From an uncultured Lentisphaerota bacterium (GTDB lineage: Bacteria; Verrucomicrobiota; Kiritimatiellia; CAIQIC01), in contig CAITZM010000081.1 of assembly GCA_903896925.1 (NCBI GenBank), positions 12,111 to 76,110 of the forward strand: a stretch of 64,000 nucleotides of DNA, given 5' to 3'. A model generated the notes under the pieces. The model saw only the letters and a list, made by a program, of their open reading frames with translations, made no database searches and was not told the origin of the DNA. The position numbers were made by a program, and so were the translations under genes. Positions 1 through 57,940 of the stretch are shown here, piece by piece. Numbering within the stretch: the first letter of the stretch is position 1; every line of letters starts with the position of its first letter.

Positions 1-1055
1 AAGTCAGCTTCGAGCATCGCTCGCCCACGGCGGACGATGTGATCGAGGTCGGCATGATTGATCTGCACGAGAACGACAAATGGATTCCCCTCGGCCAATC
101 CAAGGCGTGGTGCTGGCAACAGGGCTGCATGTTGCAATGGATTCCCGGCACGGAGTCGAAAGTGATCTGGAACGACCGCGAGAAGGACCGCTTCGTCAGC
201 CACATCCTCGATGTCAAAACCGGCGCCAAGCGCACGCTGCCGACGCCCATCTACGCGCTCAGCCCAAACGGCAAGGAGGCCGTGTCCTGCGACTTCGCGC
301 GGGTGGCCGACTGCCGCCCGGGCTACGGCTACGCGGGCATCCGCGACCGCTTTTTCGACGACATGGCGCCCGCGGGCAGCGGCGTCACGTACGTCAATCT
401 GGAGACGGGTGAGTCGAAGCTGATCGTCACGCACAAGCGGTTGGCCACGACCGGCGAGGTCATTCAAAACCATCCCAACTCCAAACACCACGCCTACCAC
501 CTGCTATGCAGCCCGGACGGGAAGCGCTTCATCCTGTTTCACCGCTGGACGCAGCCGAAAGGCGGTCAACTCTCGCGCCTCATCACTGCGAACATGGACG
601 GCAGTGACCTGCGCATCGTCATTCCGAACGGTTACGCCTCGCACTTCATCTGGCGGGATGCCACGCACATCCTCTCGCAGGCCAAAGGCTGGCTGGGCAA
701 CAACGCCTGGGGCGATTTCCTTTTCGAGGACAAGGATTCAGGCATCGTCGCGGAGATCGGCAAAGGCGTGCTCGATGCCGGCGGCCACCTCACCTACCTG
801 CGGCACAACGAGTGGCTCCTCAACGACACCTACCCCCAAGGCCCGCAGCGTTTCCAGACTCCGCATCTCTACCACATCGCGAAGAACCGCCGCATCAACC
901 TCGGCAACTTCCCATTGCCGCGTGAATACACCGGCGAATGGCGCGTGGACACCCACCCGCGCCTCAGCCGCGACGAGCGCTGGGTCTGCCTCGACTCTCC
1001 GCACACCGGCCAAGGTCGTCAACTTCACCTGATCGACATCAGCGGAGTCGCCTAA
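1..1055 (+). CDS. 5'-truncated beta-propeller protein, oligogalacturonide lyase (PL22)-like. The ORF opens at 39 but most likely continues upstream of the window.
   Basis: Uninterrupted frame from the window edge. The C-terminal pattern (RVDTHPRLSRDERWVCLDSPHTGQGRQLHLIDIS) and repeated WxxDGK-like blades are typical of TolB-like / Ogl beta-propellers. Assignment by motif recall only. Confidence 0.4.
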   Translation, partial: VSFEHRSPTADDVIEVGMIDLHENDKWIPLGQSKAWCWQQGCMLQWIPGTESKVIWNDREKDRFVSHILDVKTGAKRTLPTPIYALSPNGKEAVSCDFARVADCRPGYGYAGIRDRFFDDMAPAGSGVTYVNLETGESKLIVTHKRLATTGEVIQNHPNSKHHAYHLLCSPDGKRFILFHRWTQPKGGQLSRLITANMDGSDLRIVIPNGYASHFIWRDATHILSQAKGWLGNNAWGDFLFEDKDSGIVAEIGKGVLDAGGHLTYLRHNEWLLNDTYPQGPQRFQTPHLYHIAKNRRINLGNFPLPREYTGEWRVDTHPRLSRDERWVCLDSPHTGQGRQLHLIDISGVA

Positions 1056-1351
1056 GCGCCCAACCATTGGAGAACTACGGCACGATGACTTCCAATGCTT
1101 GGAACTGACTAATCAAATGCAAACGAAAGAACCACCCGTGAAACACGCCTCCACACTTCTCAGCGCCCTACTGTCGGCTGGGCTCGGTTTACTGTAAAAC
1201 ACATTTTGCGTTGTCACATGTAGGCGGTCATGGCGTAATGCGCAGCCATGCAGCCTGCTCTTCAAAACCACGAGCAAGACCAAAGTCATGATCGCCTGAG
1301 CCCAGCCGGTAGTCTGGTCCCCACCGGCATCAACCACTTACACGATCTCTC

Positions 1352-4174
1352 ATGAAACCCACCCCTACCCTTCTTTCTACCTTGCTGTTGGCGTCGCTGG
1401 GCGCGCTACGCGCGGCCGATTCCGGCGCGACGGCTGTTACCGCGTCTGGCAGCGCAGAGCAACTCGCGGCTCCGGTCAAAATGATCCCCGTCTCCTCGTG
1501 GCATCTGTTCCCCGCCACGGAGGGAACGAGTACGGCCTCCTGTGTGGTGGAAGGCAACACCATCAAACTGGCCTGGCAGGACAGCATCGCCGCAGAATGT
1601 GAACTCGGGTCACTCATCAATAACCGGCTCTACACTCTCGAAGGTCGGGCGCTCGCCCGCGAGTCGGGTGCGAAACTGACGCTGGTGATCAAGCAGTTCG
1701 ATACCAAATATCCAGTGGCAGAAAAACCCGATACCACGACAGAACTGACGGTGAACGGATCGCCGGACGGTTCACAGTTCGCCGTTCCTTTCTATCTGCG
1801 TACGCCTAACACCAAGGTGACGATCTCCATCCAGGCACGCGGTGTGGCGAATGCGGTGTCCGTCAGCAATGTATTTGTGCGCGGGGGTGGCCCTTATGTG
1901 TCACCATTTACTGGTACAACACCCGAAAAGTTCGAGGTCCATGATGTGCGGATCAAGGAAACGTTGGCCGGACGGACATGGGAACAGGCGGAAATCACTT
2001 CCGAAAAGGGCACGGTCAGCTTGTGCATCGCCGGGAAACCGGTGCCCCGGTTTTTCTACAATGGACTCAAGCTGGGAGAAGGGGCCGGACACTACGGTCT
2101 ATTTGCCGAAAAAGGCGTTCATCTGCTCTCGATCAACACCGATTTTGTATCAAGTGAGGTCTGGAAGGCACGCGGCCAGTACGACTTCGCTGTCATCGAG
2201 CGCGCGATCAAACGGGTGCTGGCTGTTGATCCTCAAGCACGAATCATTCTCGGCGTCTGGGCCGACACCTATCCCATGTGGAGCGTGGAGAACCCGGACG
2301 ATGTCTGCGCCAACACAGCCGGGCTGAAAGCGATCGGCGACGCGCATTTCAAAAAGTGGGGCACCGACTCGGGAAAGCTACGTTTTCTACCTTCGGTGTT
2401 TTCCACGAAGGCGCAGCACGATGTCGGCGAAATGCTCGCCCGGATTGACGAGTGGACAGACACGCACGAACTCGGCAAGGCCGTGGTCGGATATTATCTT
2501 TGGGGCTTCAATGACGCGGATTTCGGGCACTGGGTTCATCCCGCCACCTCCGGCGGGGAAAAGGACCTCGATGACTACTCGCCCGCCGCGCGGAAGGCGT
2601 TTCAGGTCTGGTTGAAAAAGAAATACGGCGATGATCGCGCCGCGCTGAGCCGTGCGTGGGGCCGTGCCGACCTGTCGTTCGAGGCCGTAACGCTGCCCAC
2701 TCCCGAACGTCGCCGCGTGAAAGCTGGCGACCTGTTTCCCTGGCTGGGACCGTCGGAGCAGGATGTGCGCGACTTCAACCAATTCTACGGCGAGGCGCCG
2801 GGTGTGTTGCTGGATGGAATCACCTCCCAACTGCGCGCCCAGATGAAGCGGAAGAAAATCGTGGTCACGCATTTCGGAAATGTCATGCACGGCTGGCGAG
2901 GCTATGTCGGCTTGGGGAAAATGATCGACGCTCCCGGCATCAATTGCCTTACGGCCACTTCCGACTACGGCGTTCGTTGGCCGGGCTATACCGGAGGATT
3001 CGACTCGCTGCCCGACAGCCTCAGGCTCAACGGGAAGGCCTTCTTTCACGAGTTCGACTACCGGGCCTTCACAAGCCGGAAAAAGGGCCCGGAGGCCTGG
3101 GACTTCGGTGTGGGGCGTGCCAAGGATGCGGCTGCTCATCAGGCCATGTTCCTGCGCGAGGCGGGGAATCTGGCGGCACACGGCCAGGGCATCTATTGCT
3201 TTGATTTGGATCAACCCAGCTATGCGGATGCCGGTATCATGAACGGCGTCGCCAAGGGCTATCAGCTCTTTACCGCACTGGCCGATGTGCGCGACGCCCC
3301 GGAAGCGGACGTGGCCCTGTTCGTCAATGAGCAGAGCGTCAGTTCGCTGTGTGAGGATCCGGAATCATCGCGTTTTCTGATGCGCCTGACGCGCCGCCAT
3401 CGGCCGCAATGGGATACCTCCGGCGTGCCGTATCATGTCTATCTGCAACGCGACATCACCAACCAGCGCCTGCCCGACTACAAGGTTTATGTCTTCCTCC
3501 TGCCGCAGGCCATCAGCCCGGCAGAACTCAAGGCCATCAATGCCTTGAAGCGGGATGGGCACACGCTGGTCTTCCTCCATGCACCCGACTTGTTGAACAA
3601 CACGGCTGCACCGACCGAGTCGCTCTCCGCGATTTTGGAGATGAACGTCATCCGGTTAGCTGGTCCGCAGCCTCTCGCCGGCGTCTGGCGCCAGTCGGAG
3701 CATCCGCTCGTGAAGAATCTGTCGGACCGCTTCGGCGACCGGCCGATTCCGTGGGCGTTCACCGACCGTGAAAGCCGCGGACTGGCCTTTGCCGTTGCGG
3801 ACAAGGCGGCCGTCCCACTTGCGGAATACCGGGACTCGGCGGACATCGCCTGCGCCGTGAAGGAGTTTCCAGAATGGCGCTGCGTATTCATGGGCGTTCC
3901 GTGGCTGGAAGCGCAATTCATGGCCAACCTTGCGCGCACCGCCAGCGCCTGGCGGGCAGGCGAGCCGCACGACGCGGTGTTCGCCAACCAGCACTTGATC
4001 ACCATCCATGCCCTGTCCGCCGGGAAGAAAGCGCTCACTCCTCGCCAGCCTTCTAAGATTACCGATGCTATCACTGGTGAAGTGATCGCCGAAAAGGCCG
4101 GTGAATTCACCGTGGAGATGCCCTTTGGAGAAACACGCGTGTTTCGCACCGAAGCCCAGCCCTTTTCACGATAG
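1352..4174 (+). CDS. secreted glycoside hydrolase, GH42 (beta-galactosidase)-like, 940 aa
   Basis: N-terminal signal peptide (MKPTPTLLSTLLLASLGALRAA). The central stretch DYSPAARKAFQVWLKKKYG..AALSRAWG resembles the GH42 catalytic-domain signature. Long uninterrupted ORF next to a pectin-lyase-like gene. Confidence 0.5.
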   Translation: MKPTPTLLSTLLLASLGALRAADSGATAVTASGSAEQLAAPVKMIPVSSWHLFPATEGTSTASCVVEGNTIKLAWQDSIAAECELGSLINNRLYTLEGRALARESGAKLTLVIKQFDTKYPVAEKPDTTTELTVNGSPDGSQFAVPFYLRTPNTKVTISIQARGVANAVSVSNVFVRGGGPYVSPFTGTTPEKFEVHDVRIKETLAGRTWEQAEITSEKGTVSLCIAGKPVPRFFYNGLKLGEGAGHYGLFAEKGVHLLSINTDFVSSEVWKARGQYDFAVIERAIKRVLAVDPQARIILGVWADTYPMWSVENPDDVCANTAGLKAIGDAHFKKWGTDSGKLRFLPSVFSTKAQHDVGEMLARIDEWTDTHELGKAVVGYYLWGFNDADFGHWVHPATSGGEKDLDDYSPAARKAFQVWLKKKYGDDRAALSRAWGRADLSFEAVTLPTPERRRVKAGDLFPWLGPSEQDVRDFNQFYGEAPGVLLDGITSQLRAQMKRKKIVVTHFGNVMHGWRGYVGLGKMIDAPGINCLTATSDYGVRWPGYTGGFDSLPDSLRLNGKAFFHEFDYRAFTSRKKGPEAWDFGVGRAKDAAAHQAMFLREAGNLAAHGQGIYCFDLDQPSYADAGIMNGVAKGYQLFTALADVRDAPEADVALFVNEQSVSSLCEDPESSRFLMRLTRRHRPQWDTSGVPYHVYLQRDITNQRLPDYKVYVFLLPQAISPAELKAINALKRDGHTLVFLHAPDLLNNTAAPTESLSAILEMNVIRLAGPQPLAGVWRQSEHPLVKNLSDRFGDRPIPWAFTDRESRGLAFAVADKAAVPLAEYRDSADIACAVKEFPEWRCVFMGVPWLEAQFMANLARTASAWRAGEPHDAVFANQHLITIHALSAGKKALTPRQPSKITDAITGEVIAEKAGEFTVEMPFGETRVFRTEAQPFSR

Positions 4175-4395
4175 CCGAAGCAAGAATTTACCCGAAAGGA
4201 AAACAACCCATGAACTCTGTCGAACGGGTCCACACGGCCCTCAAACTCGGCGTCTTCGTCGCCTTGCTGCTGGCGACGTGGGACAGCTTCGGGATCTGCT
4301 AGGAGCTTTTTATGGAGAACACCTCTATGACAACGTGGTCACTGGAACGCCCCAACCGTGGAATTTCTAAAGAAAATTGCCCGTATCTTTCCACG

Positions 4396-4447
4396 GCGAA
4401 AGAAAAAGTCACCCGGCGGCCGTCACGAAAGTGACGGTCGCCGGGTG
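4396..4447 (-). terminator. rho-independent terminator for the minus-strand regulator gene ending at 4457
   Basis: 17-bp near-perfect inverted repeat (CACCCGGCGGCCGTCAC GAAA GTGACGGTCGCCGGGTG, one mismatch) at 4410-4447. On the minus strand it is followed by a U-rich tract (ACUUUUUCUUUCG). Confidence 0.6.
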
Positions 4448-4456
4448 CATCAACCC

Positions 4457-5098
4457 TTACATCGCTCGTGCTGCCCGTAGCCCGGCCCGCCAGGCCGGCA
4501 ACCGGCCGACCTCGCGCACCAGGCTTGCTCCCCAGCAGCCGTTGAGCTTCCGCCCGATCCGCCGCTTGGCCTGCGTCACCGCCGGCGCGCTGACCTGGCA
4601 ACTGAACGCGATCTCGTTGGTGCCACGGCCTTCCACCAGCGCCTGCAGCACCTTGAGCTCGCGGATGGTCAGCAGCGGCTCGATCAGCGACCAGTCGATG
4701 TCGCGCGCCGCCAACGTAGCAGCATCCTCGCCATCCGATGCCAGCAGGTCGCCGAACGTCAACTCCTCGCCGGCCTCGTCATGCGCCGGGGCCTCCATAT
4801 CGGCCATGACCACCTGCTTGTCGAGTGTGGCGCCGGGGCACATGGCGTCCATCCTGCCTGCGTACTGCGACCGATGGCCGGATTTGAGCCGCTGGATCGT
4901 GTAGTAGGCCACGCTCCTGGGCATCAGCTCCTTACCCTGGTTCTCCAACACCTCGATGGCCTGGGCGGCCATGCACATGCCGTCCTGTACCAGCTCTTCG
5001 GGGTCTTCCGCTCCGGTGGTCTTCACTGCCTGCGGCACCACCGCGATCAGCATCGGCTGGATGACGTCCAGCAACAGCTCGCCTGCTCTTGGGCTCAT
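4457..5098 (-). CDS. sigma-70 region-4 / LuxR-type HTH regulator, 213 aa, island-encoded
   Basis: C-terminal segment ELKVLQALVEGRGTNEIAFSCQVSAPAVTQAKRRIGRKL fits the region-4 / LuxR HTH pattern. Dedicated upstream promoter and downstream terminator. Paralogous segment at 7715-8335. Confidence 0.5.
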   Translation of the reverse strand: MSPRAGELLLDVIQPMLIAVVPQAVKTTGAEDPEELVQDGMCMAAQAIEVLENQGKELMPRSVAYYTIQRLKSGHRSQYAGRMDAMCPGATLDKQVVMADMEAPAHDEAGEELTFGDLLASDGEDAATLAARDIDWSLIEPLLTIRELKVLQALVEGRGTNEIAFSCQVSAPAVTQAKRRIGRKLNGCWGASLVREVGRLPAWRAGLRAARAM

Positions 5099-5195
5099 AC
5101 GCCCTCCTGAAATGCAGACGGCCCCACGCGGCCGCCAAGGTTGGTTGGTCGGCCGGCGTGGGCGGCAGGAGGCGAGTGCTAACCCGACTCAGGCT

Positions 5196-5225
5196 ATTAT
5201 GCCGGGGTAACACATGACGGTTTAA
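5196..5225 (-). promoter_or_regulatory. sigma70-like promoter copy 1 (minus strand: TTAAAC, 18-nt spacer, CATAAT)
   Basis: Plus strand reads ..tattatgccggggtaacacatgacggtttaagc... The reverse complement gives TTAAAC-N18-CATAAT about 95 nt upstream of the start codon at 5098. The same module recurs at 7482-7509 and 7575-7602. Confidence 0.45.
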
Positions 5226-5267
5226 GCAGCAGGTGGCGTGGCGTCTGCGGGCCGTCTGTGAGACGGC

Positions 5268-5295
5268 GGGGGGGGCTCCGGCCGGCGCCCCCCCC
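5268..5295. repeat. G8-N12-C8 homopolymer hairpin between two island transcription units
   Basis: GGGGGGGG CTCCGGCCGGCG CCCCCCCC. It sits just after the stop (5305) of the upstream minus-strand operon and before promoter copy 1. No U-tract follows. Confidence 0.4.
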
Positions 5296-5304
5296 CCGCG
5301 CGGT

Positions 5305-5748
5305 TCACGCCGCCGCGCGCAGCTTGAGCTCATCCACCAGGGCGCTCGCCTGCTTGCGGTCGAGCGCGTAGAGGTCGGCGACGCCGAAGTACTGGTGCAC
5401 CTCGGCGTTGAGCTGGCTGAGCGACAGGTCCTGGCGCTCGGCCAGGTCGCGGATGAACCGGAGCTGCTTGGCGCTCGCCTGTTCGGCCGGCCTGCCGACC
5501 GGCACAGCCGCCGCCGGAGCCGCCGGTGGCGCCGCGGGCTGGGCCGCCGTGGGCGCGGCCTGGCCGTGGAGCTCGGTCTCCACCGCCTGCCGCACGAGTG
5601 CGAACGTCTGGCGCATGCGCTCCTGGACCTCCCCGGGCTGGAGCGCGTCGGGGAGCTCGAGCTCCACGGCGGCGTGGTAGCTCTGCGAGCTGAACTCCTG
5701 CCCCGGCACGGGGACTTTCTTGCTGTAGCTGGCACTGAGCTTGAGCAT
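5305..5748 (-). CDS. hypothetical protein, 147 aa, with an Ala/Pro-rich linker and conserved C-terminal helix (KQLRFIRDLAERQDLSLSQLNAEVHQYFG)
   Basis: Clean ORF, start 11 nt after the preceding 70-aa ORF. The architecture resembles small plasmid/phage-associated proteins. No family assigned. Confidence 0.45.
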   Translation of the reverse strand: MLKLSASYSKKVPVPGQEFSSQSYHAAVELELPDALQPGEVQERMRQTFALVRQAVETELHGQAAPTAAQPAAPPAAPAAAVPVGRPAEQASAKQLRFIRDLAERQDLSLSQLNAEVHQYFGVADLYALDRKQASALVDELKLRAAA

Positions 5749-5758
5749 GGGTGTCTCC

Positions 5759-5971
5759 TCAGGGCGCCAGCGCCAGGGTCGGCGCAGGCGGCCGCCGCCG
5801 CACCTGCTGCGCGTGGGTATCTTCGGCCTCGCCCAACGCCTGAGGGGCGAGGTGTTCGGCCACCAGGGCCGTCCGCAGCGGGCCGGAGGCCGTGATGGTC
5901 ATCCGGAGCTTCCGGCCGCTGTCGAGGCGCGCGCCCCGGGCGACGGCCAGCACTACGTGATACGTGTTCAT
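5759..5971 (-). CDS. small hypothetical protein, 70 aa
   Basis: Compact ORF between the clamp-homolog gene and the 147-aa gene on the same strand. Weak support only. Confidence 0.25.
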   Translation of the reverse strand: MNTYHVVLAVARGARLDSGRKLRMTITASGPLRTALVAEHLAPQALGEAEDTHAQQVRRRPPAPTLALAP

Positions 5972-6121
5972 GGGTTCCTTGGGGTGGGGTTGGTCTGCAC
6001 AGCGGCTGCACCGCAGCCGGCGGCGGCCGCCGCCGTGGTGGGCCCGCGTGCGGGCTGGCTGCGGCTGGCTACAAGGCCCAGGGCCACCGGGGTCAACCGG
6101 CGGCCCGTGGGGTGGGGTGGG

Positions 6122-7270
6122 CTAGCGTCCCGGCTGGGGGCGCCGGGGCTGGCCGGGTGTCGGCTGGGAGGCGGGGCTGCGCAGCGGCATCAGCACATGG
6201 AGGCCGCCCTGCCGGTCACGGCTGTACAGCGGGCCCTGCCCATCCGCCCAGCGGAACGCACGGAACCCTGCGGCCAGCGCGGCCAGCAGGTAGGTGCGGT
6301 CCACGCTGAGGTGGGCGGTGTGCGGTTCGAGCGTGCTGCTGGGGAGCCGCAGGCTGGTGGACGGTGGCGCGGGGTCCCCTGCGCGGCTCACCACGACGGC
6401 GCCCGCCTGCCGGTGGAGCGTCACCCCGGCAGGCTCGAGCTCCTGCCCTGTGAACAGCGGGAGCGCCTCGGTCAGCAGTCCGGCATCCGCCTCGCTGATG
6501 GTCAGCACCCACGCCCCTGCGGACGGTGGGATGACCTGGCGCCAGTGCGGGAAGGTGCCGCCGATGGTGCGCACCTGGTAATCCCAGCGGAGCGTCACCA
6601 GCCGGAACCAGCCGCCCGCCTGGTCGGCCGAGTACCCGACCTGCAGCTCCGTGGGCGTGAGCTCGGTCCAGAGCAGGAACTGGCTCGCCGGGACAATGCA
6701 GCTGGTGCGGAACGGCTGGCGGACCGTGTTGAAGGCGCTCAGGCGCCGGCCATCCGTGGCCACGACGTAGTCCCCCTCCGCGCTGCTGTCGAGATACAGG
6801 CCGCCCAGGCTAGGTCGGGACGTGTCGCGCGACGCGAACGGCGCGGCTTTGCGCAGGTGGCCGAGCAAGGCGGGATCGACCGCGCCGACCTCGGGCTTGG
6901 GCGGCAGCAGCGGCCACTCGTCCAGTGGGGTGGCCGTCACCTCGCGGCTGAGCCGCTGGCCGGCGAAGGTCTGGGTGAGTTGGAGGCGGTGGTCTACGGA
7001 GCCAAGCTCGACGGCTTCCGCTCCCCGGCCGTGGGCCAGGCGGCTGAGCTCCGTGAACGGCACGAGGGTCTCACCCGCGGTTTGGATGTGGGCTGATCCG
7101 CAGCGGTAGGCCAGCACGCTGTCGAGATCGGTCGCGGTAAGTGTGAGCCGGCCTGGGTAGGCGCTGAGCCTTACGAGTTGGAACACTGGCAGGGTGGTTT
7201 TAGGGGGCACGACCTTGGACAGGCCGGCCAGGGCGTCACGCAACTCGTGACGCGGGAGTGTTATTTTCAT
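6122..7270 (-). CDS. DNA polymerase III beta sliding-clamp (DnaN) homolog, divergent. Alternative upstream ATG at 7471 would add a 67-aa Pro-rich extension.
   Basis: MKITLPRHELRDALAGLSKVVPPKTTLPVFQLVRL..LTLTATDLD matches the DnaN N-terminus. Later blocks match too: YVVATDGRRLSA corresponds to VATDGHRLAV, GGTFPHWRQVIPP to DGRFPDYRRVLP, and HVLMPLRS to VVMPMRL. Length about 383 aa is clamp-like. Confidence 0.65.
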   Translation of the reverse strand: MKITLPRHELRDALAGLSKVVPPKTTLPVFQLVRLSAYPGRLTLTATDLDSVLAYRCGSAHIQTAGETLVPFTELSRLAHGRGAEAVELGSVDHRLQLTQTFAGQRLSREVTATPLDEWPLLPPKPEVGAVDPALLGHLRKAAPFASRDTSRPSLGGLYLDSSAEGDYVVATDGRRLSAFNTVRQPFRTSCIVPASQFLLWTELTPTELQVGYSADQAGGWFRLVTLRWDYQVRTIGGTFPHWRQVIPPSAGAWVLTISEADAGLLTEALPLFTGQELEPAGVTLHRQAGAVVVSRAGDPAPPSTSLRLPSSTLEPHTAHLSVDRTYLLAALAAGFRAFRWADGQGPLYSRDRQGGLHVLMPLRSPASQPTPGQPRRPQPGR

Positions 7271-7481
7271 GGGTTTCCTGGGGTTGGAGGTGGCGGCGCC
7301 CTTGGTCTGGCGCACAGCTTCGGCGCTGAGCCGGGTGCTGGGCACCCGGCGGGGAGGGCCTGCGCGGACGCCGTGCAGGCGCCGCAAGTCTTCCTCCGAC
7401 AGGGCGGCGGCGGGCCCGGGGAAATACGGCATCAGGCTCCTTGGGTGGGAGTGTGGTGACGGGTTAAACATCCGTCATCTT

Positions 7482-7509
7482 ATTATGCCGGGGTAGGGGG
7501 GTGTTTTAA
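7482..7509 (-). promoter_or_regulatory. sigma70-like promoter copy 2 (TTAAAA-N16-CATAAT) immediately upstream of the clamp-homolog ORF
   Basis: Reverse complement of cttattatgccggggtaggggggtgttttaag. The -10 element ends about 10 nt before the ATG at 7471. This gives either a leaderless transcript from 7471 or an approximately 200-nt leader for the ATG at 7270. Confidence 0.45.
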
Positions 7510-7574
7510 GCGGTGGGGCTTCTGCGGAGGGATCCCTGCTGGTACGCCGGTCAGGGCGTGGTTGCTACCGTAGT

Positions 7575-7602
7575 ATTATGCCGCGGCAAGACGGGCTTTT
7601 AA
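7575..7602 (-). promoter_or_regulatory. sigma70-like promoter copy 3 (TTAAAA-N16-CATAAT), tandem with copy 2
   Basis: Reverse complement of agtattatgccgcggcaagacgggcttttaagg. It lies 93 bp upstream of copy 2 and shares the TATTATGCCG(G/C)GG core. Confidence 0.4.
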
Positions 7603-7714
7603 GGCAGGGCGGAGCAGCGGCCTGCCGGCCCTCTCTGGTAGCTACAGACCGCAGAGCCCCGCTTGGCCGTCCCGCTCGGTCGCGGGCGCCACGGGCCGCA
7701 GAGTCGGCGTGATG

Positions 7715-8335
7715 CTACACCGGAACTCCTTGTGCGGTTCCGCTGCTTGGAACTAAGGCGGCCCAGGCCTTTCGAACTGTGGGGCCGCGGTGTTGCACGC
7801 AGCCAAGCGCCAAGAAAAACAGGCCGACCGCGCCGAGCGCAAGGCTGATGAGCCGCAGTACTTTTTGTTTTGTCAGGGCCGCAAGCGCCCCGAGCGCCCT
7901 GGCGATTTGAAAGGGCGTGACGCTTTTCGCGGGCGTGTTGTGGCGCTGCACAGGCCACGCGGACGACGCTCTCCAGCAGCCGCTGATCTTCCGTCCGCTC
8001 CGCCGCCTGGCCTGGGTGACCGCCGGCGCCGCCACCTGACCGCCGCACGCGCTCTCGCTGGTGCCGGGGCCCGCTACCAAGGCCGGCAGCACCTGTTGCT
8101 CGCGCTCGCTCAGCCCCGGCCGCAGTCCCTGGCGTAGCTGAGGGCGCGCCACGCCGTTCCCTCGGCCTAGCTGCCGGGCTTGCTCCCGGGGGCCTGTTTC
8201 GGCGGCTGTTGCGCCGCCCACAGCAGCCCGGCGGCCTGGGCCAGCAGGCCTGGTTTTCGGGTTGCCAGGGGGCGCGCCCCGAACCGCCGCTGCCGCGGCC
8301 GCCCCCTGGCCGGTGGCCGCACCTGGCCGGCGCAC
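7715..8335 (-). CDS. degenerate paralog of the region-4/LuxR HTH protein, with a C-terminal hydrophobic segment and a low-complexity N-terminus. Possibly frameshifted or pseudogenised.
   Basis: QVAAPAVTQARRRSGRKISGCWRAS aligns with QVSAPAVTQAKRRIGRKLNGCWGAS of the 4457-5098 protein. The ORF overlaps the 8167-8817 ORF by 169 nt in another frame. The Gly/Ala-rich N-terminus looks like a frame artefact. Confidence 0.3.
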   Translation of the reverse strand: MRRPGAATGQGAAAAAAVRGAPPGNPKTRPAGPGRRAAVGGATAAETGPREQARQLGRGNGVARPQLRQGLRPGLSEREQQVLPALVAGPGTSESACGGQVAAPAVTQARRRSGRKISGCWRASSAWPVQRHNTPAKSVTPFQIARALGALAALTKQKVLRLISLALGAVGLFFLALGCVQHRGPTVRKAWAALVPSSGTAQGVPV

Positions 8336-8817
8336 GCCTTCACGTAGGCTTCCAAGCCCTCCAGGGAGATCTGGGCAGCTGGAATGTTCTTATTAACCTG
8401 CTCCCAAGCCAGGCGCTTGAACTTGAGCGAGCCGGGGGCCTGGCGCATGAAGAGCCCCCGCAGATGCTTCAGCTGGCGGGCCCGCGCCCGGTCTTCCGCG
8501 CGGCACGCCTGCTCGTCGGCGCGCAGTTGCGACTCCTGGGCCAGCTCCTCCCGCTTGAGCTCCGTCAGCAGCTGGGCGGCCAGCAGGGCCGGCCCGGTTG
8601 CGCCCAGGCTCAGGGAGCCTTGCCGCTGCCGTCCCTCGGGCGTGGTGACCCGGTAGCGGATGCGCCAGCCAAAGTGCTGGCCCGCTCCGTAGTGCCGGCC
8701 TTGGACGGATCCGTTTTCCAGGAAATGGGGCAGGACGGTGCGCAGTTTATCGCGCACCGCGGGCGGCAAGGCCAGCAGGCGCTCATGCCGCAGGAGCTGG
8801 TCCACGTCCAGCGACAT
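8167..8817 (-). CDS. hypothetical protein, 216 aa
   Basis: ORF starts 2 nt after the upstream ORF (8819-9466). Its low-complexity C-terminal tail overlaps the next ORF, so the 3' boundary is uncertain. Confidence 0.35.
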   Translation of the reverse strand: MSLDVDQLLRHERLLALPPAVRDKLRTVLPHFLENGSVQGRHYGAGQHFGWRIRYRVTTPEGRQRQGSLSLGATGPALLAAQLLTELKREELAQESQLRADEQACRAEDRARARQLKHLRGLFMRQAPGSLKFKRLAWEQVNKNIPAAQISLEGLEAYVKACAGQVRPPARGRPRQRRFGARPLATRKPGLLAQAAGLLWAAQQPPKQAPGSKPGS

Positions 8818-8818
8818 C

Positions 8819-9466
8819 TCAAGCCCTTCGGGCGGACGGGGCCGCTGCGCCCTCCGCCTGCTGGCCCTTCTGCGGTCCTTGGCCTAACAGCAGCGCGTGG
8901 CGGGCGGACGTGTAATCGCGCAAGACCTTCATATAGCTCTGCGTGGCCCGGTCCAGGAGCTCAAACAGCTGCAGGTTCTCCTCATCCGGCGCGTGAACGC
9001 TGGCAATGGACGGGAGCGGGACGGTAGGTGCCTGGGTCGACAGGCCGTAATCGCGGCTGGCGAGGAACAGCCGGAGCCGCATGATGACTTCGGCGAGCAT
9101 TTTCAGATGCGACCCGACGATCTGCTCGGTGAGGCCCATGATGCCCCGCTGGTCCAGCGCGTTCTGCACCGTTTGGCGGATCTCCCGCTCATACGTTAGC
9201 AGCCCGTACTTTAGCATGCCCCCCTGGTTGGACGGCAGGTTGTGCCCGAAGATTGTCTCCAGGTCGCCTTGCGCGATGGCCGCCTGATGCGCCTCCTGGT
9301 ATTCACGCTCGGGATCGCGCGGGGGCTTTTGATGGTCTGGGCGGGCCCTCCGCTCCTCCCGGCGTTTCTTGGAGGACTCTCTGGCGGCCCGCTGCTTGGG
9401 CTTTTGGCCTGCGTGCCCCGCGGGCGGGGGCGGTTGCTGTGCCGATACACCGGGTTCATCAGGCAT
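8819..9466 (-). CDS. hypothetical protein, 215 aa, basic N-terminus (KKRREERRAR) followed by a globular domain
   Basis: ORF with GGAAGGA ribosome-binding site 8 nt upstream of the ATG. First gene of the minus-strand island operon. Confidence 0.4.
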   Translation of the reverse strand: MPDEPGVSAQQPPPPAGHAGQKPKQRAARESSKKRREERRARPDHQKPPRDPEREYQEAHQAAIAQGDLETIFGHNLPSNQGGMLKYGLLTYEREIRQTVQNALDQRGIMGLTEQIVGSHLKMLAEVIMRLRLFLASRDYGLSTQAPTVPLPSIASVHAPDEENLQLFELLDRATQSYMKVLRDYTSARHALLLGQGPQKGQQAEGAAAPSARRA

Positions 9467-9857
9467 GGTTCACGTCCTTCCGCATAAGCTGTTCATCAAT
9501 TTCAGCCTGCGCAGGCTAGCAAGCGCGGCAGATTTTGTCAGCGAAAAATGCACACGATCATGCGCCGTGCTCAGGCAGCCCGCGCGGTTTCGGTATCGTT
9601 TCTATTTGACGCAACGGGCGTGGGAGTGCCCGGCAGCGTGTCCGGAGTCCGGGCTGTCCATGGGGTTGCACGGCTCTCAGCCCTGTGCTAATTTACGTGC
9701 ACATGAAGCGTAGGTATAAACTTGGGTCAAGCTGACCGGTGGCCGCGGAAAAGAAGCGGCTGTTGGCTGGCGCGGTGCAGACGGTCGCGCCAGTCGAGCG
9801 CGCCGCGGACCGGCCGGGTGTGGCGGACGGAAGCCTTTGCCGGCGTGGAGAGCGACG

Positions 9858-9995
9858 CAAATAAAAATATTTAAATTGACCAGGAATGTTTTCTTGTGCC
9901 CGGTGGCTGGAAAAAGAAATCACTTAATTATTTGTTATTATTTTAAATTGAAATACTTGTAAGTTTAATTTAGTCGCGATGTCAAACTGTCCCTG
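9858..9995. other. AT-rich segment (about 140 bp) in a GC-rich background. Likely island boundary or regulatory region.
   Basis: caaataaaaatatttaaattgacc ... ttattattttaaattgaaatacttgtaagtttaatttag. Contains two TTTAAATTGA repeats and -35-like hexamers. No ORF. Confidence 0.5.
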
Positions 9996-9999
9996 CCGC

Positions 10000-10455
10000 C
10001 TTTGCACCGCGCGCAGGGCTTGGCGCAGGTGATGAGGGTTGGGTGCACGCGCCAGCTAGTCCGAGTCCCCAGGAGCGCCGCCCTCCCGACCACCTACCCA
10101 GGGGCCACGATTCGTGGGAAGCTGGCGGATCGTGCAGGTGGCTGCGCTGGGCTGGCGGAGGCTGCCGCTGGCTCTGCCGTTGACGGGGCCCATCCGGCCG
10201 GGCCAAGGCCTTGCGGCTGTCTGCGCCTCCTGACGGGTTCCGTGTCAATATCACGCCGGGTGGGTACACCGGTTCGGTTGACCTGTCCGGCCGCGGCTCA
10301 GGGCCCTGTGGCGGGTGACGGGGCCGGTACTCCGGCGGCCGCTGACCCTGCGCCGTGCGGTGCGCACCAACCAGACTTTTTTCACAACATCTGCCAGCCG
10401 CCGCACACGACGGCCGCCCGTGAGCCATCGCCACCCTGTCGGGTGGTTTTTTTGT
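10000..10455 (+). ncRNA. candidate structured non-coding RNA (unknown family) ending in tandem intrinsic terminators
   Basis: About 450 bp of GC-rich sequence with no credible ORF. The only ORF is Ala/Gly/Pro/Arg-rich and runs into a terminator. A hairpin GGTGCGCACC with T-tract lies at 10359-10382. A second hairpin CCACCC-TGTC-GGGTGG followed by TTTTTTT lies at 10431-10453. Confidence 0.3.
10431..10453 (+). terminator. rho-independent terminator (plus strand)
   Basis: CCACCC TGTC GGGTGG followed by TTTTTTT. Confidence 0.55.
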
Positions 10456-10539: not shown

Positions 10540-12699
10540 TCAGGCGAAGGGCATCAGGCGGCCGGGGGGGCCGTTGAGTTCGTCGTTCCAGTCGGCGGGT
10601 TTGGCGCCGGCGATGGTGGCGATGCGGCGCGAGGTCAGCACCGGTGCGCGCGCGTCGCGCTCCCGCACCGGGATGGCCTCGAGCGCGAAAATCTGCTGCG
10701 GGATCGGCGGCTTGCCGGGATCCTTGTAGCGCACGTAGAGCGCGGCCGGGTTGTCGTCGGCGAAGAACCGGACCACCGCGCCCTTGGCGCCGAGGCGGTA
10801 CTCGCGGTTGGTGATCAGCCCGCCGGTGACGAACCGCCGGAGGTGCGTGAAGAGGTCGAACTCGTAGACCACCGTCAGCACGCGCTCGCGGTCGAGGATG
10901 GAGCAGTGGAGCAGCGTGCCATCGACGAACAGCTTGTCGGCCGGCGCGACCACCTTGCAGCGCCCGTCGCGCCAGACGAGCAGCAGCTTGTCGAGCGGCG
11001 AGCAGGTGAGCAGCGGCTCGCCCGCGATCTTGTGGCCCAGGTAGCCCTTCTCGCGGTCGTAGGCGATGGCCAGCGCGTCGGAGGTCAGCTCGCGCTCGGA
11101 GATCTCGCCGAACTGCGCGAGCTGCGTGCGCCGCGGATAGTCCGCGCCGTATTTCTTCAGCAGGTTCCGCAGGTAGCGGATGGCGTAGGGCGCGAGCGCG
11201 TCCAGGTTCTGGCCCACCTCCGCCAGCTCGGCGCGGCTGCGCTCCAGCTCCGCCCGGTTCTTCTCGATGTCGAACAGCGAGATGCGCCGGACGGGGATGC
11301 CGAGCAGCGTCTCCAGGTCGTCCTTGGTCACGTCGCGCTGGAGCTGGTCGCGGAACGGCAGCAGCCCGTCGAGCACGGCCTGCTGCACGGCGGCCGCGGT
11401 GGCGCAGGTCTCGATGCTCTTGTAGATGCGCTGCTCGATGAACAGGCGGACGAGCGTCAGGCCGTGGAGCGCGTCCACCAGCTCGCGGCGCCGGTGCAGC
11501 AGCTCGGCGCGCAGCAGCTCGACCAGCCGCGCCGTGTTGTGGCGCAGGATCTCCGGCACCGTCAGCTCGACCGGCTTCTGGTCGTGGATGACGACGATGC
11601 GGCTGGCGACCTGCACCTGGCACTGCGTGAAGGCGAAGAGCGACTCCATGGCGCGGGCCGGATCCTGGTCCGGCGGCAGCTTGATCTCGATCTCGACCTG
11701 CTCGGCGGTGAAGTCGTTGAGGCTTTTGAGCTTGAGCCGCCCCTTGCGCGACGCCTCCTCGATGGAGGCCATGACCGCGTCGGTCGTGACGCCGAACGGC
11801 AGCGAGCGCAGCACCAACGTCTGTTCATCCTTCTGCTCGATGTGGGCGCGGAGCAGGACGTGCCCGCGCCCGTCGTCGTAGGCGCGCGCGTCCATCAGGC
11901 CGCCCTGCGGGAAGTCGGGCAGCACGCGGAGCGCCTTCTTCTGGAGGATGGCGATCTGCGCCTCGAGCAGCTCCGCGAAGTTGTGCGACAGGATGCGCGT
12001 GGAGATGCCCACGGCGATGCCCTCGGCGCCGAGCATCAGCAGCAGCGGGATCTTCGCCGGCAGGGAGACCGGCTCCTGCTTGCGGCCATCGTAGGACGGC
12101 ACGTACGCCGTGAGCGCGTCGTTGAACAACACTTCGCGCGCCAGGGGCGTCAGCCGGCACTCGATGTAGCGCACCGCGGCGGCCGGGTCGCCGGTGAAGA
12201 TGTTGCCGTAGTTGCCCTGCCGCTCGATCAGGTACTGCTTGTTCGCCAGCGTGACGAGCGCGTCGCCGATCGAGGCGTCGCCGTGCGGGTGGAACTGCAT
12301 GCAGTAGCCGACGATGTTGGCGACCTTGATGAACTTCCCGTCGTCGTTTTCGTGGAGCGAGAACAGGATGCGCCGCTGCACCGGTTTGAGGCCGTCGTCG
12401 AGGTCGGGGATGGCGCGGTCGCGGATGACATAGGCGGCGTACTGGAGAAAGTTGCTGTCCATCATCTGCTTGAGCGCGCCGTCGCCGGTGGCCTTCAGGC
12501 CCGTGGCTGGCGTTGCGGGCGGCATCTGGACAGCGTCCGTCCCGCCTTCGGCCGGGCTGTTGCCTACGGCTGCGGGGATGGCAGCGGCCGGCGCCGGCGG
12601 GGCCTGCATGCCGGGGAGTTCCGGCGCGGGCCCCGGATCGGGGTTTGGCGCGGGGTTGAACAGCGGCAGCTCGCCGGGTTTGTCGTCGGGCGCGCTCAC
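10540..12699 (-). CDS. parC: type IIA topoisomerase subunit A, ParC-like (topoisomerase IV) by size
   Basis: GLKPVQRRILFSL motif, then HPHGDASIGDALV. The active-site Tyr sits in AAVRYIECRL. Length 719 aa with no GyrA-box, so ParC is favoured over GyrA. Start overlaps the parE stop (ATGA). Confidence 0.8.
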   Translation of the reverse strand: MSAPDDKPGELPLFNPAPNPDPGPAPELPGMQAPPAPAAAIPAAVGNSPAEGGTDAVQMPPATPATGLKATGDGALKQMMDSNFLQYAAYVIRDRAIPDLDDGLKPVQRRILFSLHENDDGKFIKVANIVGYCMQFHPHGDASIGDALVTLANKQYLIERQGNYGNIFTGDPAAAVRYIECRLTPLAREVLFNDALTAYVPSYDGRKQEPVSLPAKIPLLLMLGAEGIAVGISTRILSHNFAELLEAQIAILQKKALRVLPDFPQGGLMDARAYDDGRGHVLLRAHIEQKDEQTLVLRSLPFGVTTDAVMASIEEASRKGRLKLKSLNDFTAEQVEIEIKLPPDQDPARAMESLFAFTQCQVQVASRIVVIHDQKPVELTVPEILRHNTARLVELLRAELLHRRRELVDALHGLTLVRLFIEQRIYKSIETCATAAAVQQAVLDGLLPFRDQLQRDVTKDDLETLLGIPVRRISLFDIEKNRAELERSRAELAEVGQNLDALAPYAIRYLRNLLKKYGADYPRRTQLAQFGEISERELTSDALAIAYDREKGYLGHKIAGEPLLTCSPLDKLLLVWRDGRCKVVAPADKLFVDGTLLHCSILDRERVLTVVYEFDLFTHLRRFVTGGLITNREYRLGAKGAVVRFFADDNPAALYVRYKDPGKPPIPQQIFALEAIPVRERDARAPVLTSRRIATIAGAKPADWNDELNGPPGRLMPFA

Positions 12700-33151: not shown

Positions 33152-33358
33152 GCGCCGGCCGGCCGGCGGAACGTGGCGGCCCTCCCGCGGATGGTTTCCT
33201 TGTACCAGGGCCTTGGGATTCTCTGCGCCGCTGATTATTTGATTGATTGCCGGCCTGCCGGCAGGACATGATAGGCCACCATGTTTACCCAGAACAACAA
33301 CGCGCGTGCTCCCAGGTCTGCGCGGCCGGCGGGCGGGGCTTTCCAAGGTCTGGAAAAT

Positions 33359-35905: not shown

Positions 35906-35980
35906 AAAGCAACTCATGAGCGGACTTCCGCAGGGTAAACCAGGTTCGCAGCAGCAGGGCGCCAGAAAGCCCGGTGAGGG

Positions 35981-38386: not shown

Positions 38387-38464
38387 AGCGCGCCCGGCCC
38401 GCGCTGGTCCGAATTTATTCTTGCGAACGGTGGTTTTATGAGCGAGGATTCGCAAAACTAAGAG

Positions 38465-57497: not shown

Positions 57498-57940
57498 TGT
57501 TTCTTTATCAAAAGGGCTTGGTGGAAGTGCTGAGAGGAACGGTAGTGCTGTGGCCGCCGGAGCAGGCCATTTTTACGCGGACAGCGGGTCCGGCGGCGGT
57601 GCACAACGGACCGGGTTTGCCGCACGCTTTGGCACCCTGAACGCGAGCTGCCGCCGCCGGGCCGCCGTGTGCGAACGGCAGGCGAGGGAGTCGCCGGTAA
57701 CTGGTGTGGGGTGCGCTGGTGCCCCGCAAGGGTCGCAAGGGGGCGGCTCTTCAGGGTATCCTGTGTCGCTGGCCCCCTGCCTCCTGCGCCCGTTCCGAGT
57801 CACCACCACTCCCGTTCCGCATGGAAAAAAGCCCCCCCCCATATGCGGGGTCAAGCAAGGAAATACTTTATTGCTTACCAAGGCTAAAACTGTATAGTCA
57901 CGCCCCAAGTAAACTTGTACGTCGATTTGAAAGGGCGCTC

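Follow-up and report, generated by a model that had tools for sequence, protein, structure and literature searches.

A block of about 5.8 kb beside chromosomal parC, extending from about position 4338 to at least about 10135 of the 64-kb stretch of DNA analysed here (the window), is probably (roughly 60%) what remains, partly decayed and non-autonomous, of a mobile element of phage-like or integrative type, in a chromosome that is itself probably acidobacterial. Seven intact minus-strand genes are present, encoding p215, p216, the small protein s54, a DnaN-like sliding clamp, s70, a GemA-like protein and the regulator HTH1 (Table 1). Its main interest lies in the gene cassette for which it stands, as the block represents an undescribed clamp cassette family. 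Three modules may be distinguished. The first is a clamp cassette operon, in which the tandem promoter-like motifs P_C and P_B and a hairpin in the leader precede the s54-clamp fusion, s70 and the GemA-like gene. The second, a self-contained regulator unit, has P_A and a structured, near-constant leader in front of the sigma-like HTH1 and ends in a terminator. An HTH pseudogene fragment, the genes for p215 and p216 and non-coding AT-rich DNA make up the third. The core of the original prediction, that the block is left over from a mobile element and has no mobility genes of its own, was supported by the absence of the block beside parC in near relatives, the recurrence of its modules elsewhere, fuller relatives among typical mobile-element genes, a gene order shared with phage 16-3 and signs of decay; its arguments from GC content and from an intact duplicated regulator were not.

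Position and composition of the block

As predicted, the DNA between a GH42-like gene and parC contains a block of genes that all run on the minus strand. The junction on the parC side was seen again in an independent assembly (L003) and is real. In the three closest parC orthologs (ParC identities of 88%, 86% and 80%) the parE-parC pair is kept and the downstream genes differ in each; the block is missing downstream of parC at all three loci, and nucleotide homology with the closest one (L098) goes no further than the parC stop codon. Gene order around parC is poorly kept in every relative at this distance, which makes this absence weak evidence for an insertion. The modules recur in unrelated contexts at 76–84% nucleotide identity: the clamp operon and HTH1 (window positions 7518-6152 and 5755-4470) match locus L001 at 77–82% with different flanks, and positions 5227-4338 match stand-alone HTH1 units in L100 (84%, the homologous unit reaching window position 4338) and L099 (76%).

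Table 1 Features of the block and its flanks in window coordinates.
Feature	Position	Strand	Remarks
GH42-like gene	1352-4174	+	left neighbour of block
Intrinsic terminator, end of HTH1 unit	4398-4447	-	16-bp stem, one mismatch, then ACUUUUUCUUUC
HTH1 regulator	4457-5098	-	213 aa; C-terminal GerE/sigma-region-4 HTH
HTH1 5' leader	5099-5195	-	near-invariant; alignment of 5 loci
P_A promoter-like motif	5196-5226	-	CTTAAAC-N-CCGGCATAAT, upstream of HTH1
G10...C8 hairpin	5268-5297	-	directly 3' of GemA-like stop codon
GemA-like protein	5305-5748	-	147 aa; Pfam GemA 8e-5
s70	5759-5971	-	70 aa; conserved 3' of clamp gene in relatives; GC3 0.89
DnaN-type sliding clamp homolog	6122-7270	-	382 aa, start MKITLPRHEL
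s54/s67, small protein upstream of clamp	7271-7432	-	here fused in frame to clamp (436-aa ORF)
Conserved hairpin (GAUGACGGAUGUUUAACCCGUCACC)	7455-7479	-	5' end of clamp operon transcript, just downstream of P_B
P_B promoter-like motif	7482-7510	-	TTAAAA-16-CATAAT
P_C promoter-like motif	7575-7603	-	93 nt upstream of P_B
HTH2 pseudogene fragment	7968-8120	-	C-terminal HTH of HTH1-like gene; 153 nt
p216	8167-8817	-	rare protein; conserved WRLRYRV beta-sheet motif and RGRPR (AT-hook-like) motif
p215	8819-9466	-	GC3 0.80; 1 nt from p216
AT-rich non-coding stretch	9467-10135	.	core 9870-9995, 126 nt, GC 0.317
Terminator-like hairpin and T7	10430-10455	+	between AT-rich block and parC
parC (topoisomerase IV subunit A)	10540-12699	-	chromosomal flank; NCBIfam NF007209, 744 bits vs cutoff 644

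The block had been described as extra GC-rich, but its GC content (0.685 for 4380-9995) equals that of the housekeeping block at 10–37 kb (0.683), and a GC content as high or higher is seen in 26% of windows of equal size. What was noticed earlier is a contrast with the low-GC left flank (0.599); a GC of 0.72 is reached only in the clamp operon sub-block. Composition deviates only in the GC-normalised tetranucleotide signature, in which no other 5-kb window departs as far as 5001-10000 does (r = 0.54, at least 0.71 in the others). The GC3 of the seven intact ORFs (0.80–0.94) is host-like, and with GC and GC3 both near host values the block would be either old or derived from a similar genome. 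The poly-G/poly-C run was located (G10/C8), as were the block's own terminator at one end, a hairpin (4410-4447) with a U-tract whose RNA fold of -43 kcal/mol (z = -4.4) was equalled by 0/200 shuffles, and the AT-rich segment at the other.

A GC content equal to that of neighbouring housekeeping genes, together with the lack of mobility genes, would suit an ordinary stretch of chromosome, peculiar to this lineage and never part of a mobile element, with a clamp that is a diverged paralog of host dnaN. We consider this very improbable, given the deviant tetranucleotide signature, the modules present elsewhere with other flanks, a clamp nearer to phage processivity factors than to dnaN and cassette partners that recur in mobile-element contexts only.

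The clamp cassette and its relatives

The predicted DnaN-type clamp homolog is present and divergent. It matches Pfam DNA_pol3_beta (2.6e-8), solved beta clamps in the PDB over their whole three-domain length (E down to 1e-13) and, at full length, PHROG 947 'processivity factor' (2.6e-24), the last with a better score than those of dnaN models. Unlike DnaN, it reaches about half of the TIGR00663 equivalog cutoff (71.7 bits against 137.65), gave no detectable Pfam C-terminal domain and lies outside a dnaA-dnaN-recF context. The PT-rich linker and C-terminal coiled coil typical of the clamp family are missing here, and an out-of-frame remnant of this tail is still present in L001; with a dN/dS of 0.62 against L001, the clamp is evolving under relaxed constraint. 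The family is rare (about 50 clusters among 5.8 billion), and its typical members are always flanked by s67, s70 and GemA-like genes.

In relatives, s54/s67 is a separate gene overlapping the clamp gene, called there as a gene of 65–67 aa, with tblastn matches in L090, L089, L002 and L005 in a frame that differs from that of the clamp; the fused s54-clamp ORF recurs identically in independent assemblies. The s70 gene, also called in L003, gave tblastn identities of 34–76% (L089, L092, L006, L005 and L002). The best-conserved member of the cassette is the GemA-like protein (identity of 50–81% in L001, L089, L006, L005 and L002), whose Pfam GemA score of 24 bits is below the cutoff of 27 and whose orthologs match the same family in 6/6 cases. 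In all six orthologs, the C-terminal half of the protein matches positions 28-115 of 119 of the profile for bacteriophage Mu GemA (PF06252). Unlike in Mu GemA, an N-terminal domain (MLKLSASYSKKVP...) lies outside the match, and no Mu-like transposition or structural context surrounds the gene. At the equivalent place 3' of its GemA-like gene, L001 carries a hairpin with another sequence, and the leader hairpin of the clamp operon is kept in L001 and L090.

A similar arrangement is found in the temperate Rhizobium phage 16-3 (NC_011103), which carries the clamp p081, p082, p083, an HNH gene, a Cas4-domain exonuclease and the sigma factors p086 and p087. The shared order runs from a clamp and two small ORFs to a PD-(D/E)XK/Cas4-like nuclease (in the relatives) and one or more sigma-type regulators (in the window and L001). 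The two clamps are homologous (29.5% identity, E 1.5e-20), this being the only significant similarity, with no detectable homolog of s70, the GemA-like protein or HTH1 in the phage. Unlike the phage, the island has no structural, lysis or integrase genes, and the nuclease is absent from the window.

Fuller relatives of the cassette run on into a PD-(D/E)XK nuclease (L002, L005, L089 and the P0010 contig) and DUF932, and adjoin helicase, FtsK-like and excisionase-like genes. Their contexts include PDDEXK_1, DUF932, DUF3150/DUF1257/DUF2997, WGR-ligase, AAA_25/DnaB_C helicases, HTH_17 and FtsK_SpoIIIE as well as Peptidase_M78 with HTH_3 and type I restriction-modification genes; these neighbours are typical of mobile elements. 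One HTH1 homolog (85% identity) is labelled Kiritimatiellaeota and the clamp relatives Verrucomicrobiota, such metagenome-bin labels being unreliable for mobile DNA.

The restriction-modification genes near relatives, the small uncharacterised proteins and the position of the block in a variable region beside a synteny break would also be compatible with an anti-phage defence or anti-defence locus, whose clamp-like protein senses or blocks foreign replication. This appears highly unlikely: PADLOC matched 0/8 products, the window's block has no nuclease, NADase, protease or pore domain to serve as an effector, and the relatives' context resembles mobile-element replication and recombination genes.

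The regulator unit and its promoter motif

HTH1 has about 35 homologs at 74–88% identity, some of them annotated at source as sigma-24 (JGI) or LuxR. It resembles group 3/4 (ECF-like) sigma-70 factors and LuxR/GerE proteins in its two helical domains, an N-terminal one of three helices reminiscent of sigma region 2 and a C-terminal HTH that passes the Pfam GerE threshold (1.9e-7). Top Foldseek matches were sigma factors throughout (best E 1e-3) and a profile search of the PDB returned Staphylococcus aureus SigB (E 4e-4), the factors matched by structure or profile being SigH, SigB and ECF SigH/SigL. A Pfam search found no Sigma70 domain, including Sigma70_r2 and Sigma70_r4, and from scores of this size the sigma-like assignment is weak. 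The dN/dS values of HTH1 (0.12–0.26) and the GemA-like protein (0.38) place both under purifying selection.

The HTH1 leader is predicted to fold into a hairpin in which the Shine-Dalgarno sequence, through its CAGGAG, is paired with CUCCUG. The minimum free energy is -50 kcal/mol with a z of only -1.8, a Rfam search gave no match, and the sequence is too uniform to show more than a trace of covariation.

The reiterated promoters that had been predicted correspond to a motif of 29–31 nt, CTTAAA-N12-20-GGCATAAT, with exactly three copies in 64 kb, all inside the block, against 0 expected by chance. P_A is conserved 5' of HTH1 homologs in L099 and L100, the tandem pair P_C/P_B is kept in L001, L090 and L099, and among the fetched loci the motif is restricted to those with HTH1 or an HTH1 remnant. 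HTH1 may thus be an element-encoded sigma-like factor or activator, which would drive its own promoter and both clamp-operon promoters through their common motif. Unlike in the ECF case, the motif associated with HTH1 (TTAAAA-16-CATAAT) looks sigma-70-type; alternatively, each module could simply have brought a good sigma-70 promoter along with it.

Two paralogous HTH proteins had been proposed, but only one intact GerE-type protein is present and no evidence for an intact duplicated regulator was found. The second copy is the HTH2 pseudogene fragment, a direct repeat (D1) 76% identical to 4527-4679, with 9/14/13 substitutions over the codon positions (L>P, R>P and I>S, including helix-breaking ones), and it is not called as a gene in independent assemblies (L003).

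Mobility, decay and possible retained function

No integrase, transposase, relaxase or capsid gene was matched among the main ORFs of the window, in agreement with the original prediction, and no direct or att-like repeats flank the block; the insertion is therefore inferred, not demonstrated. Excisionase, primase, transfer and packaging genes were likewise not found, leaving nothing in support of the satellite lifestyle once suggested. A satellite-like element that is still active, mobile or mobilisable but non-canonical, and that relies on another element in trans for its recombinase and for transfer or packaging, would explain much the same 3-kb cassette in another genomic context, HTH1 units in several contexts and taxon labels at 76–88% identity, and HTH remnants 5' of promoters (window and L090), which Campbell-type recombination by way of the HTH unit could have produced. 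We regard this as quite improbable, given the missing mobility genes and att-like repeats and a dS between copies (0.26–0.46) comparable with the parC value among relatives (0.42), which gives no sign of recent transfer.

Signs of decay, namely the HTH pseudogene fragment, the lost clamp tail and the clamp's dN/dS, point to the remnant preferred here. The clamp would encircle DNA and tether the small partner proteins of the cassette or a host polymerase; in intact relatives it would do so, jointly with the PD-(D/E)XK nuclease encoded nearby, for the replication or recombination of the element. In the window, the nuclease and all mobility genes would be gone along with the clamp tail, with the regulator still under purifying selection.

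The term remnant may understate retained function, since none of the seven genes is disrupted and purifying selection acts on the GemA-like protein as well as on HTH1. A domesticated module, once mobile and retained as a host regulon in which selection keeps an accessory clamp and its partners under a sigma-like factor, expressed for example under stress or DNA damage, would accord with these intact, host-like ORFs, with dN/dS values of 0.26 (HTH1) and 0.38 (GemA-like), with a truncated clamp kept in two lineages (window and L001) and with intact promoters, leader and terminator. This is unlikely in view of the clamp's dN/dS and lost family-typical tail, the frameshifted tail remnant in L001, the absence of the block from the three nearest parC-bearing relatives and the rarity of the clamp family.

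Towards parC, p215 has no family or PDB match, and its homologs are confined to assemblies of the same organism. Part of the adjoining AT-rich stretch has a homologous counterpart in L001, upstream of the cassette there, which indicates that the island extends at least to about 10135, and stop codons break the shared translation, placing the conservation at the DNA level. The terminator-like hairpin beyond it may be the end of a transcript diverging from the island genes. An analogous A-run/hairpin lies at about 8345-8385 in L001.

Layout and composition of the gene block beside parC

As the original prediction had described, a co-oriented block of minus-strand ORFs lies between a GH42-like gene and parC (Table). 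The genes of the block have a third-position GC of 0.80-0.94 and are therefore regarded as coding, whereas an HTH-like ORF at 7715-8335 (GC 0.75/0.66/0.75 by codon position) has a non-coding look. Two independent assemblies of the same organism from other samples, L003 and L004, repeat the parC end, p215, p216, the 436-aa s54-clamp ORF and s70, with no gene called over the HTH fragment. The terminator expected after HTH1, the GerE-type regulator gene, was found as a strong hairpin (-43 kcal/mol, z = -4.4), and both the AT-rich segment and the poly-G/poly-C runs (a G10...C8 hairpin 3' of the GemA-like stop codon) were likewise located. The related locus L001 carries a homologous AT-rich block and about 150 nt beyond it, and the island in the window therefore reaches at least ~10135.

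Features of the block and its borders (positions in the window)
Feature	Position	Strand	Remark
GH42-like gene	1352-4174	+	
HTH1 unit	5227-4338		promoter to just past terminator
HTH1	4457-5098	-	GerE-type regulator, 213 aa; distal end from parC
HTH1 leader	5099-5195	-	97 nt
P_A	5196-5226		promoter-like motif upstream of HTH1
GemA-like protein	5305-5748	-	between s70 and HTH1
s70	5759-5971	-	3' of clamp
Sliding-clamp homolog	6122-7270	-	436-aa ORF together with s54
s54/s67	7271-7432	-	in-frame fusion to clamp
P_B	7482-7510		promoter-like motif upstream of clamp operon
P_C	7575-7603		promoter-like motif upstream of clamp operon
HTH-like short fragment	7968-8120	-	153 nt
p216	8167-8817	-	second block gene from parC side
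p215	8819-9466	-	first block gene from parC side
AT-rich segment	9870-9995		GC 0.317
parC	10540-12699	-	

The gap between p215 and parC (9467-10455) comprises about 1 kb without a convincing ORF, with DNA-level conservation with L001 around its AT-rich core and a plus-strand terminator-like hairpin at 10430-10455; the stretch may give rise to a non-coding transcript running away from the island genes. Between 9896 and 10135, tblastx hinted at a conserved ORF on the plus strand, which was dropped because both translations contain stop codons, indicating conservation at the DNA level rather than of a coding sequence.

The claim that the block is extra GC-rich did not hold. Its GC content is 0.685, compared to 0.683 in the housekeeping region of 10-37 kb, a level that is reached or exceeded by 26% of the windows of equal length; the visible step arises because the left flank is low in GC (0.599). 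Even so, no other part of the window deviates as much in its GC-normalised tetranucleotide profile as 5001-10000 (r = 0.54 vs at least 0.71 elsewhere). A purely native origin of the block, with which its GC content agrees and its tetranucleotide profile does not, is a less likely reading.

The absence of an integrase noted in the original prediction was borne out, with no integrase, transposase, relaxase or capsid domain in the main window ORFs. Pfam and PHROG searches returned no structural, packaging or lysis genes and no integrase in the block or the other main window ORFs. Neither a recombinase domain nor a tRNA gene was found in the window, nor were relaxase, coupling protein or type IV secretion genes, and the check for att repeats gave no flanking direct repeat joining the two ends of the block. 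The marks of a satellite (integrase, AlpA-type regulator, primase-helicase, capsid-redirecting or packaging genes) were not detected in the block. From the proposal of a phage/ICE-derived or satellite-like module, the idea of a decayed remnant was retained, while gene marks of a satellite or an ICE were not found. We read the block as what is left, in decayed and non-autonomous form, of a phage-like or integrative element, with a probability of about 0.6.

Comparison of the site in the three closest ParC orthologs (88%, 86% and 80% identity) lends modest support, as parC synteny is poor. The clamp block is absent from all three; parE-parC is kept in each, the genes downstream of it differ among all three, and the 86% relative loses nucleotide homology exactly at the parC stop codon. 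This absence is supportive but not strong, because gene order beyond parE is variable too. All named relatives of ParC at 68-70% identity come from Acidobacteriota, and on this basis the host was taken to be acidobacterial. Clamp modules occur in another context in L001, as does the HTH1 unit in two further loci, L100 and L099.

The sliding clamp and its gene cassette

The predicted DnaN-type clamp homolog is real, being matched by PHROG 947 'processivity factor' (E 2.6e-24, 86.9 bits, positions 3-366 of 368), by the DnaN equivalog TIGR00663 and by solved beta clamps in the PDB, such as 5wce and 6izo (down to 1e-13, residues 1-364), which extend the three-domain fold over the full length. The TIGR00663 match, however, scored 71.7 bits, below the cutoff of 137.65, and covered only positions 1-256 of 367, while tblastn with the clamp against phages 16-3, AmM-1 and DS6A gave E values of 4e-14 to 5e-7. 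In the 64-kb window its local context is parC and mobile-type genes, not dnaA/recF. Judged from sequence, the clamp is probably not a housekeeping DnaN.

The clamp family is small (~50 clusters in 5.8 billion), and a typical member, at about 480 aa, carries a PT-rich linker and ends in a conserved coiled coil (...EDKQRRxEVESVRAGLARLQSIKV) at the C terminus. This tail is missing from the window clamp and from that of L001, its nearest context-resolved relative, in which an out-of-frame coiled-coil remnant of 31 codons (11121-11213), 61% identical to the related protein P0003, overlaps the stop of the truncated clamp. In relatives, s67 is a separate gene overlapping the clamp start, whereas in the window it is fused in frame to give the 436-aa ORF. 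The fusion is not a sequencing error, because the same ORF is present in three independent assemblies, and the internal start of the clamp has kept its own ribosome-binding box. Exact look-up of 449-aa and 382-aa clamp ORFs gave no match, the recorded gene being the 436-aa form. The translation-initiation box CCCACCCCAAGGAAaCCCATGAA is repeated in the window at 5967-5988 and 7266-7287 on the minus strand, before s70 and the clamp, and occurs in L001 at about 9985-10003 and about 11505-11531, before the clamp and GemA-like genes.

In relatives, the clamp always lies between an upstream s67 and a downstream s70 with a GemA-like gene. The operon continues there with a PD-(D/E)XK nuclease and DUF932, or with DUF3150/DUF1257/DUF2997, a WGR-ligase and an AAA ATPase; neighbouring genes encode AAA_25/DnaB_C helicases, HTH_17, Peptidase_M78 with HTH_3 and type I restriction-modification systems, and the contig of one relative carries an FtsK_SpoIIIE protein of 1220 aa near the cassette. 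These surroundings are mobile-element contexts. The labelled genomes with the cassette belong to Verrucomicrobiota and to one 'Gammaproteobacteria' bin, the clamp-family genome scan having used a 15-sequence alignment as query. Viral contigs gave distant clamps only (24-28% identity) with the cassette partners absent, and PLSDB plasmids and INPHARED phages likewise gave distant clamps without partners and no GemA-like homolog. The GemA-like product scores 24 bits against Mu GemA (PF06252), below the Pfam gathering threshold of 27, and is equally sub-threshold in six of six orthologs. Literature searches on DUF3150/DUF932, DUF1257/DUF2997, clamp with ICE and GemA with clamp found nothing relevant. 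A role of the block in defence, for which restriction-modification neighbours in relatives might be adduced, is less likely, as none of its 8 products matched PADLOC-DB 2.0, a collection of anti-phage defence systems.

L001 matches the window with 77-82% nucleotide identity over 7518-6152 and 5755-4470, which include the tandem promoters, leader hairpin, clamp, GemA-like gene and HTH1. Its flanks differ (response regulator, Ser/Thr kinase and 2-oxoacid dehydrogenase genes), and p215, p216 and the HTH fragment are absent from it. The link of p215 and p216 to the cassette is purely one of position. The p216 family has 12 representatives in 1.84 billion proteins, with the conserved motifs WRLRYRV and RGRPR, the latter AT-hook-like, while no relatives of p215 were detected outside the same organism. 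The predicted fold of p216 is confident, and its gene lies about 1 kb from the 126-nt AT-rich segment. A supposed relationship of p216 to a 236-aa protein upstream of the relatives' clamps was dropped, the two being unrelated.

HTH1, its promoters and its leader

Instead of two paralogous HTH proteins, as had been claimed, the block holds one such protein and a fragment 76% identical to 4527-4679. Substitutions in the fragment are evenly spread over the codon positions (9/14/13) and place proline and serine inside helices, so that it is a pseudogene piece rather than a paralogous protein. The HTH1 unit forms a separate module and is found by itself in L100 (84% nucleotide identity) and L099 (76%), where its neighbours are glycoside hydrolase and sulfatase genes; the GH-like genes adjoining HTH1 in the window and L100 were compared and are unrelated. 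In another locus, L090, the leader and the first 14 codons of an HTH1-type gene are joined directly to the clamp promoters, a 5' remnant that mirrors the 3' fragment in the window. About 35 members make up the protein family (74-88% identity), one of them labelled Kiritimatiellaeota.

HTH1 combines a three-helix N-terminal domain with a C-terminal GerE-type HTH, the latter matching PF00196 at residues 143-186 (31 bits, gathering threshold 23.5). Foldseek searches of the PDB with its AlphaFold model (pLDDT 67) returned sigma factors as all top matches (SigH, SigB, sigma A and ECF SigH/SigL; best E 1e-3), and the family profile aligned with regions 3.2-4 of S. aureus SigB (E 4e-4), with the ELVQDG motif falling on region 2.1 in a sub-threshold alignment. 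NCBIfam gave weak matches to SigH region 4, JGI annotates some homologs as sigma-24, and Pfam Sigma70_r2 and Sigma70_r4 gave no match. We infer that HTH1 is a putative element-type sigma-like factor or activator.

The reiterated promoters of the original prediction were recovered as CTTAAA-N12-20-GGCATAAT, which occurs three times in 64 kb where none is expected, each time in the block (P_A, P_B and P_C). Across loci, the motif is found in the window, L001, L090, L099 (twice) and L100, only with HTH1 or its remnant; clamp loci that lack HTH1 do not have it. In L099, the tandem promoters recur as an orphan copy (P_C and a truncated P_B) at 4513-4628, intergenic, facing the 3' end of a GH16 gene and far from the HTH1 gene of that contig. 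The link between HTH1 and the motif is one of co-occurrence. HTH1 may drive all three promoters, acting on its own and on the tandem pair of the clamp operon, and the sigma-like regulatory circuit of the block may then be intact, a tentative reading that we do not quite favour.

The HTH1 leader is more conserved than the coding sequence. It is near-invariant in five loci (the window, L100 9262-9350, L099 9886-9990, L001 12040-12132 and L090 2716-2810), where the coding regions differ by 16-24%. In its predicted fold, a long hairpin pairs CUCCUG with the Shine-Dalgarno sequence and would sequester it; the five available copies are nearly identical and show almost no covariation. Searched against Rfam, the leader gave no match, neither at the gathering threshold nor with E values up to 1. 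It is possibly a cis-regulatory RNA or an operator that has not been described before.

Constraint, known systems and the wider window

Between the window and L001, dN/dS is 0.62 for the clamp, 0.38 for the GemA-like gene and 0.26 for HTH1, with 0.16 and 0.12 for HTH1 against L100 and L099 and 0.22 for parC against L098, the locus of a close parC relative. Constraint is relaxed on the clamp and not on the regulator HTH1. The main alternative to simple decay is that the remnant has been domesticated, and the same values bear on it from both sides, through a constrained regulator and a loosened clamp. Cassette dS is 0.26-0.46, comparable to the 0.42 seen for parC between relatives, and hence gives no sign of recent transfer; active mobilisation in trans, which would agree with the presence of modules in differing contexts, is less likely.

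Phages provide known cases of mobile elements with an accessory sliding clamp. In the temperate Rhizobium phage 16-3, the genes run clamp p081, p082, p083, HNH, Cas4-domain exonuclease, sigma p086, sigma p087 and helicase. Its clamp shares 29.5% identity with that of the window (E 1.5e-20), while its other proteins have no significant similarity to the window. The 16-3 order agrees with that of the cassette once the window and L001, which supply the clamp, two small genes and the sigma-like HTH1, are combined with fuller relatives, which supply the clamp, two small genes and a PD-(D/E)XK nuclease. The likeness is one of organisation and probably of role, that of an early module for replication/recombination whose transcription factors are encoded by the element, and not of family membership. 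The kind of element is known. No earlier description of this particular clamp cassette, of the portable regulator unit or of p216 turned up in these searches.

It might be speculated, with little confidence, that the cassette is an undescribed mobile-element DNA-transaction module. The four genes s67, coiled-coil clamp, s70 and GemA-like would then form a self-contained set spread among mobile elements of Verrucomicrobiota, Kiritimatiellota and Acidobacteriota, with the clamp dedicated to partners specific to the element, for which it would serve as a platform, rather than acting as a polymerase processivity factor. In the lineage of the window, a sigma factor borne by the element and recognising its own portable promoter would have brought the cassette under its control; expression of this factor would be gated by the ultra-conserved structured leader, and its unit might serve as a homology patch for integration of the cassette. 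To our knowledge, beyond model phages little is understood of the partners and roles of such clamps, and the phyla concerned have almost no mobile-element genetics. The locus defines a rare, tightly linked clamp-partner set and a portable sigma-like regulator that brings along its own promoter motif and a near-invariant leader. What follows in practice for this genome is limited: the block is best regarded as decayed DNA of foreign derivation, and neither dnaN nor two LuxR regulators should be used in its annotation.

The other main window ORFs are ordinary chromosomal ones, encoding parE, two PGM/PMM genes, omptin, DAHP synthase, prephenate dehydrogenase, EPSP synthase, cytidylate kinase, DnaG primase, TPR/polysaccharide-deacetylase proteins, a P-type ATPase and a KaiC-like ATPase. 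The phosphoglucomutase/phosphomannomutase genes form a tandem paralogous pair at 14759-16114 and 16164-17552 (plus strand). Compared with 0.68 in the housekeeping block of 10-37 kb, GC content is clearly lower at 1-4379 (0.60) and 38000-60000 (0.62). Several paralogs of very large size and of the TPR/polysaccharide-deacetylase type (33281-41938 and 51928-56274) belong to the second of these low-GC regions, and a low-GC stretch at 57704-60141 (plus strand) carries a three-gene run of a response-regulator receiver protein, a KaiC-like ATPase and an AAA_22 ATPase.
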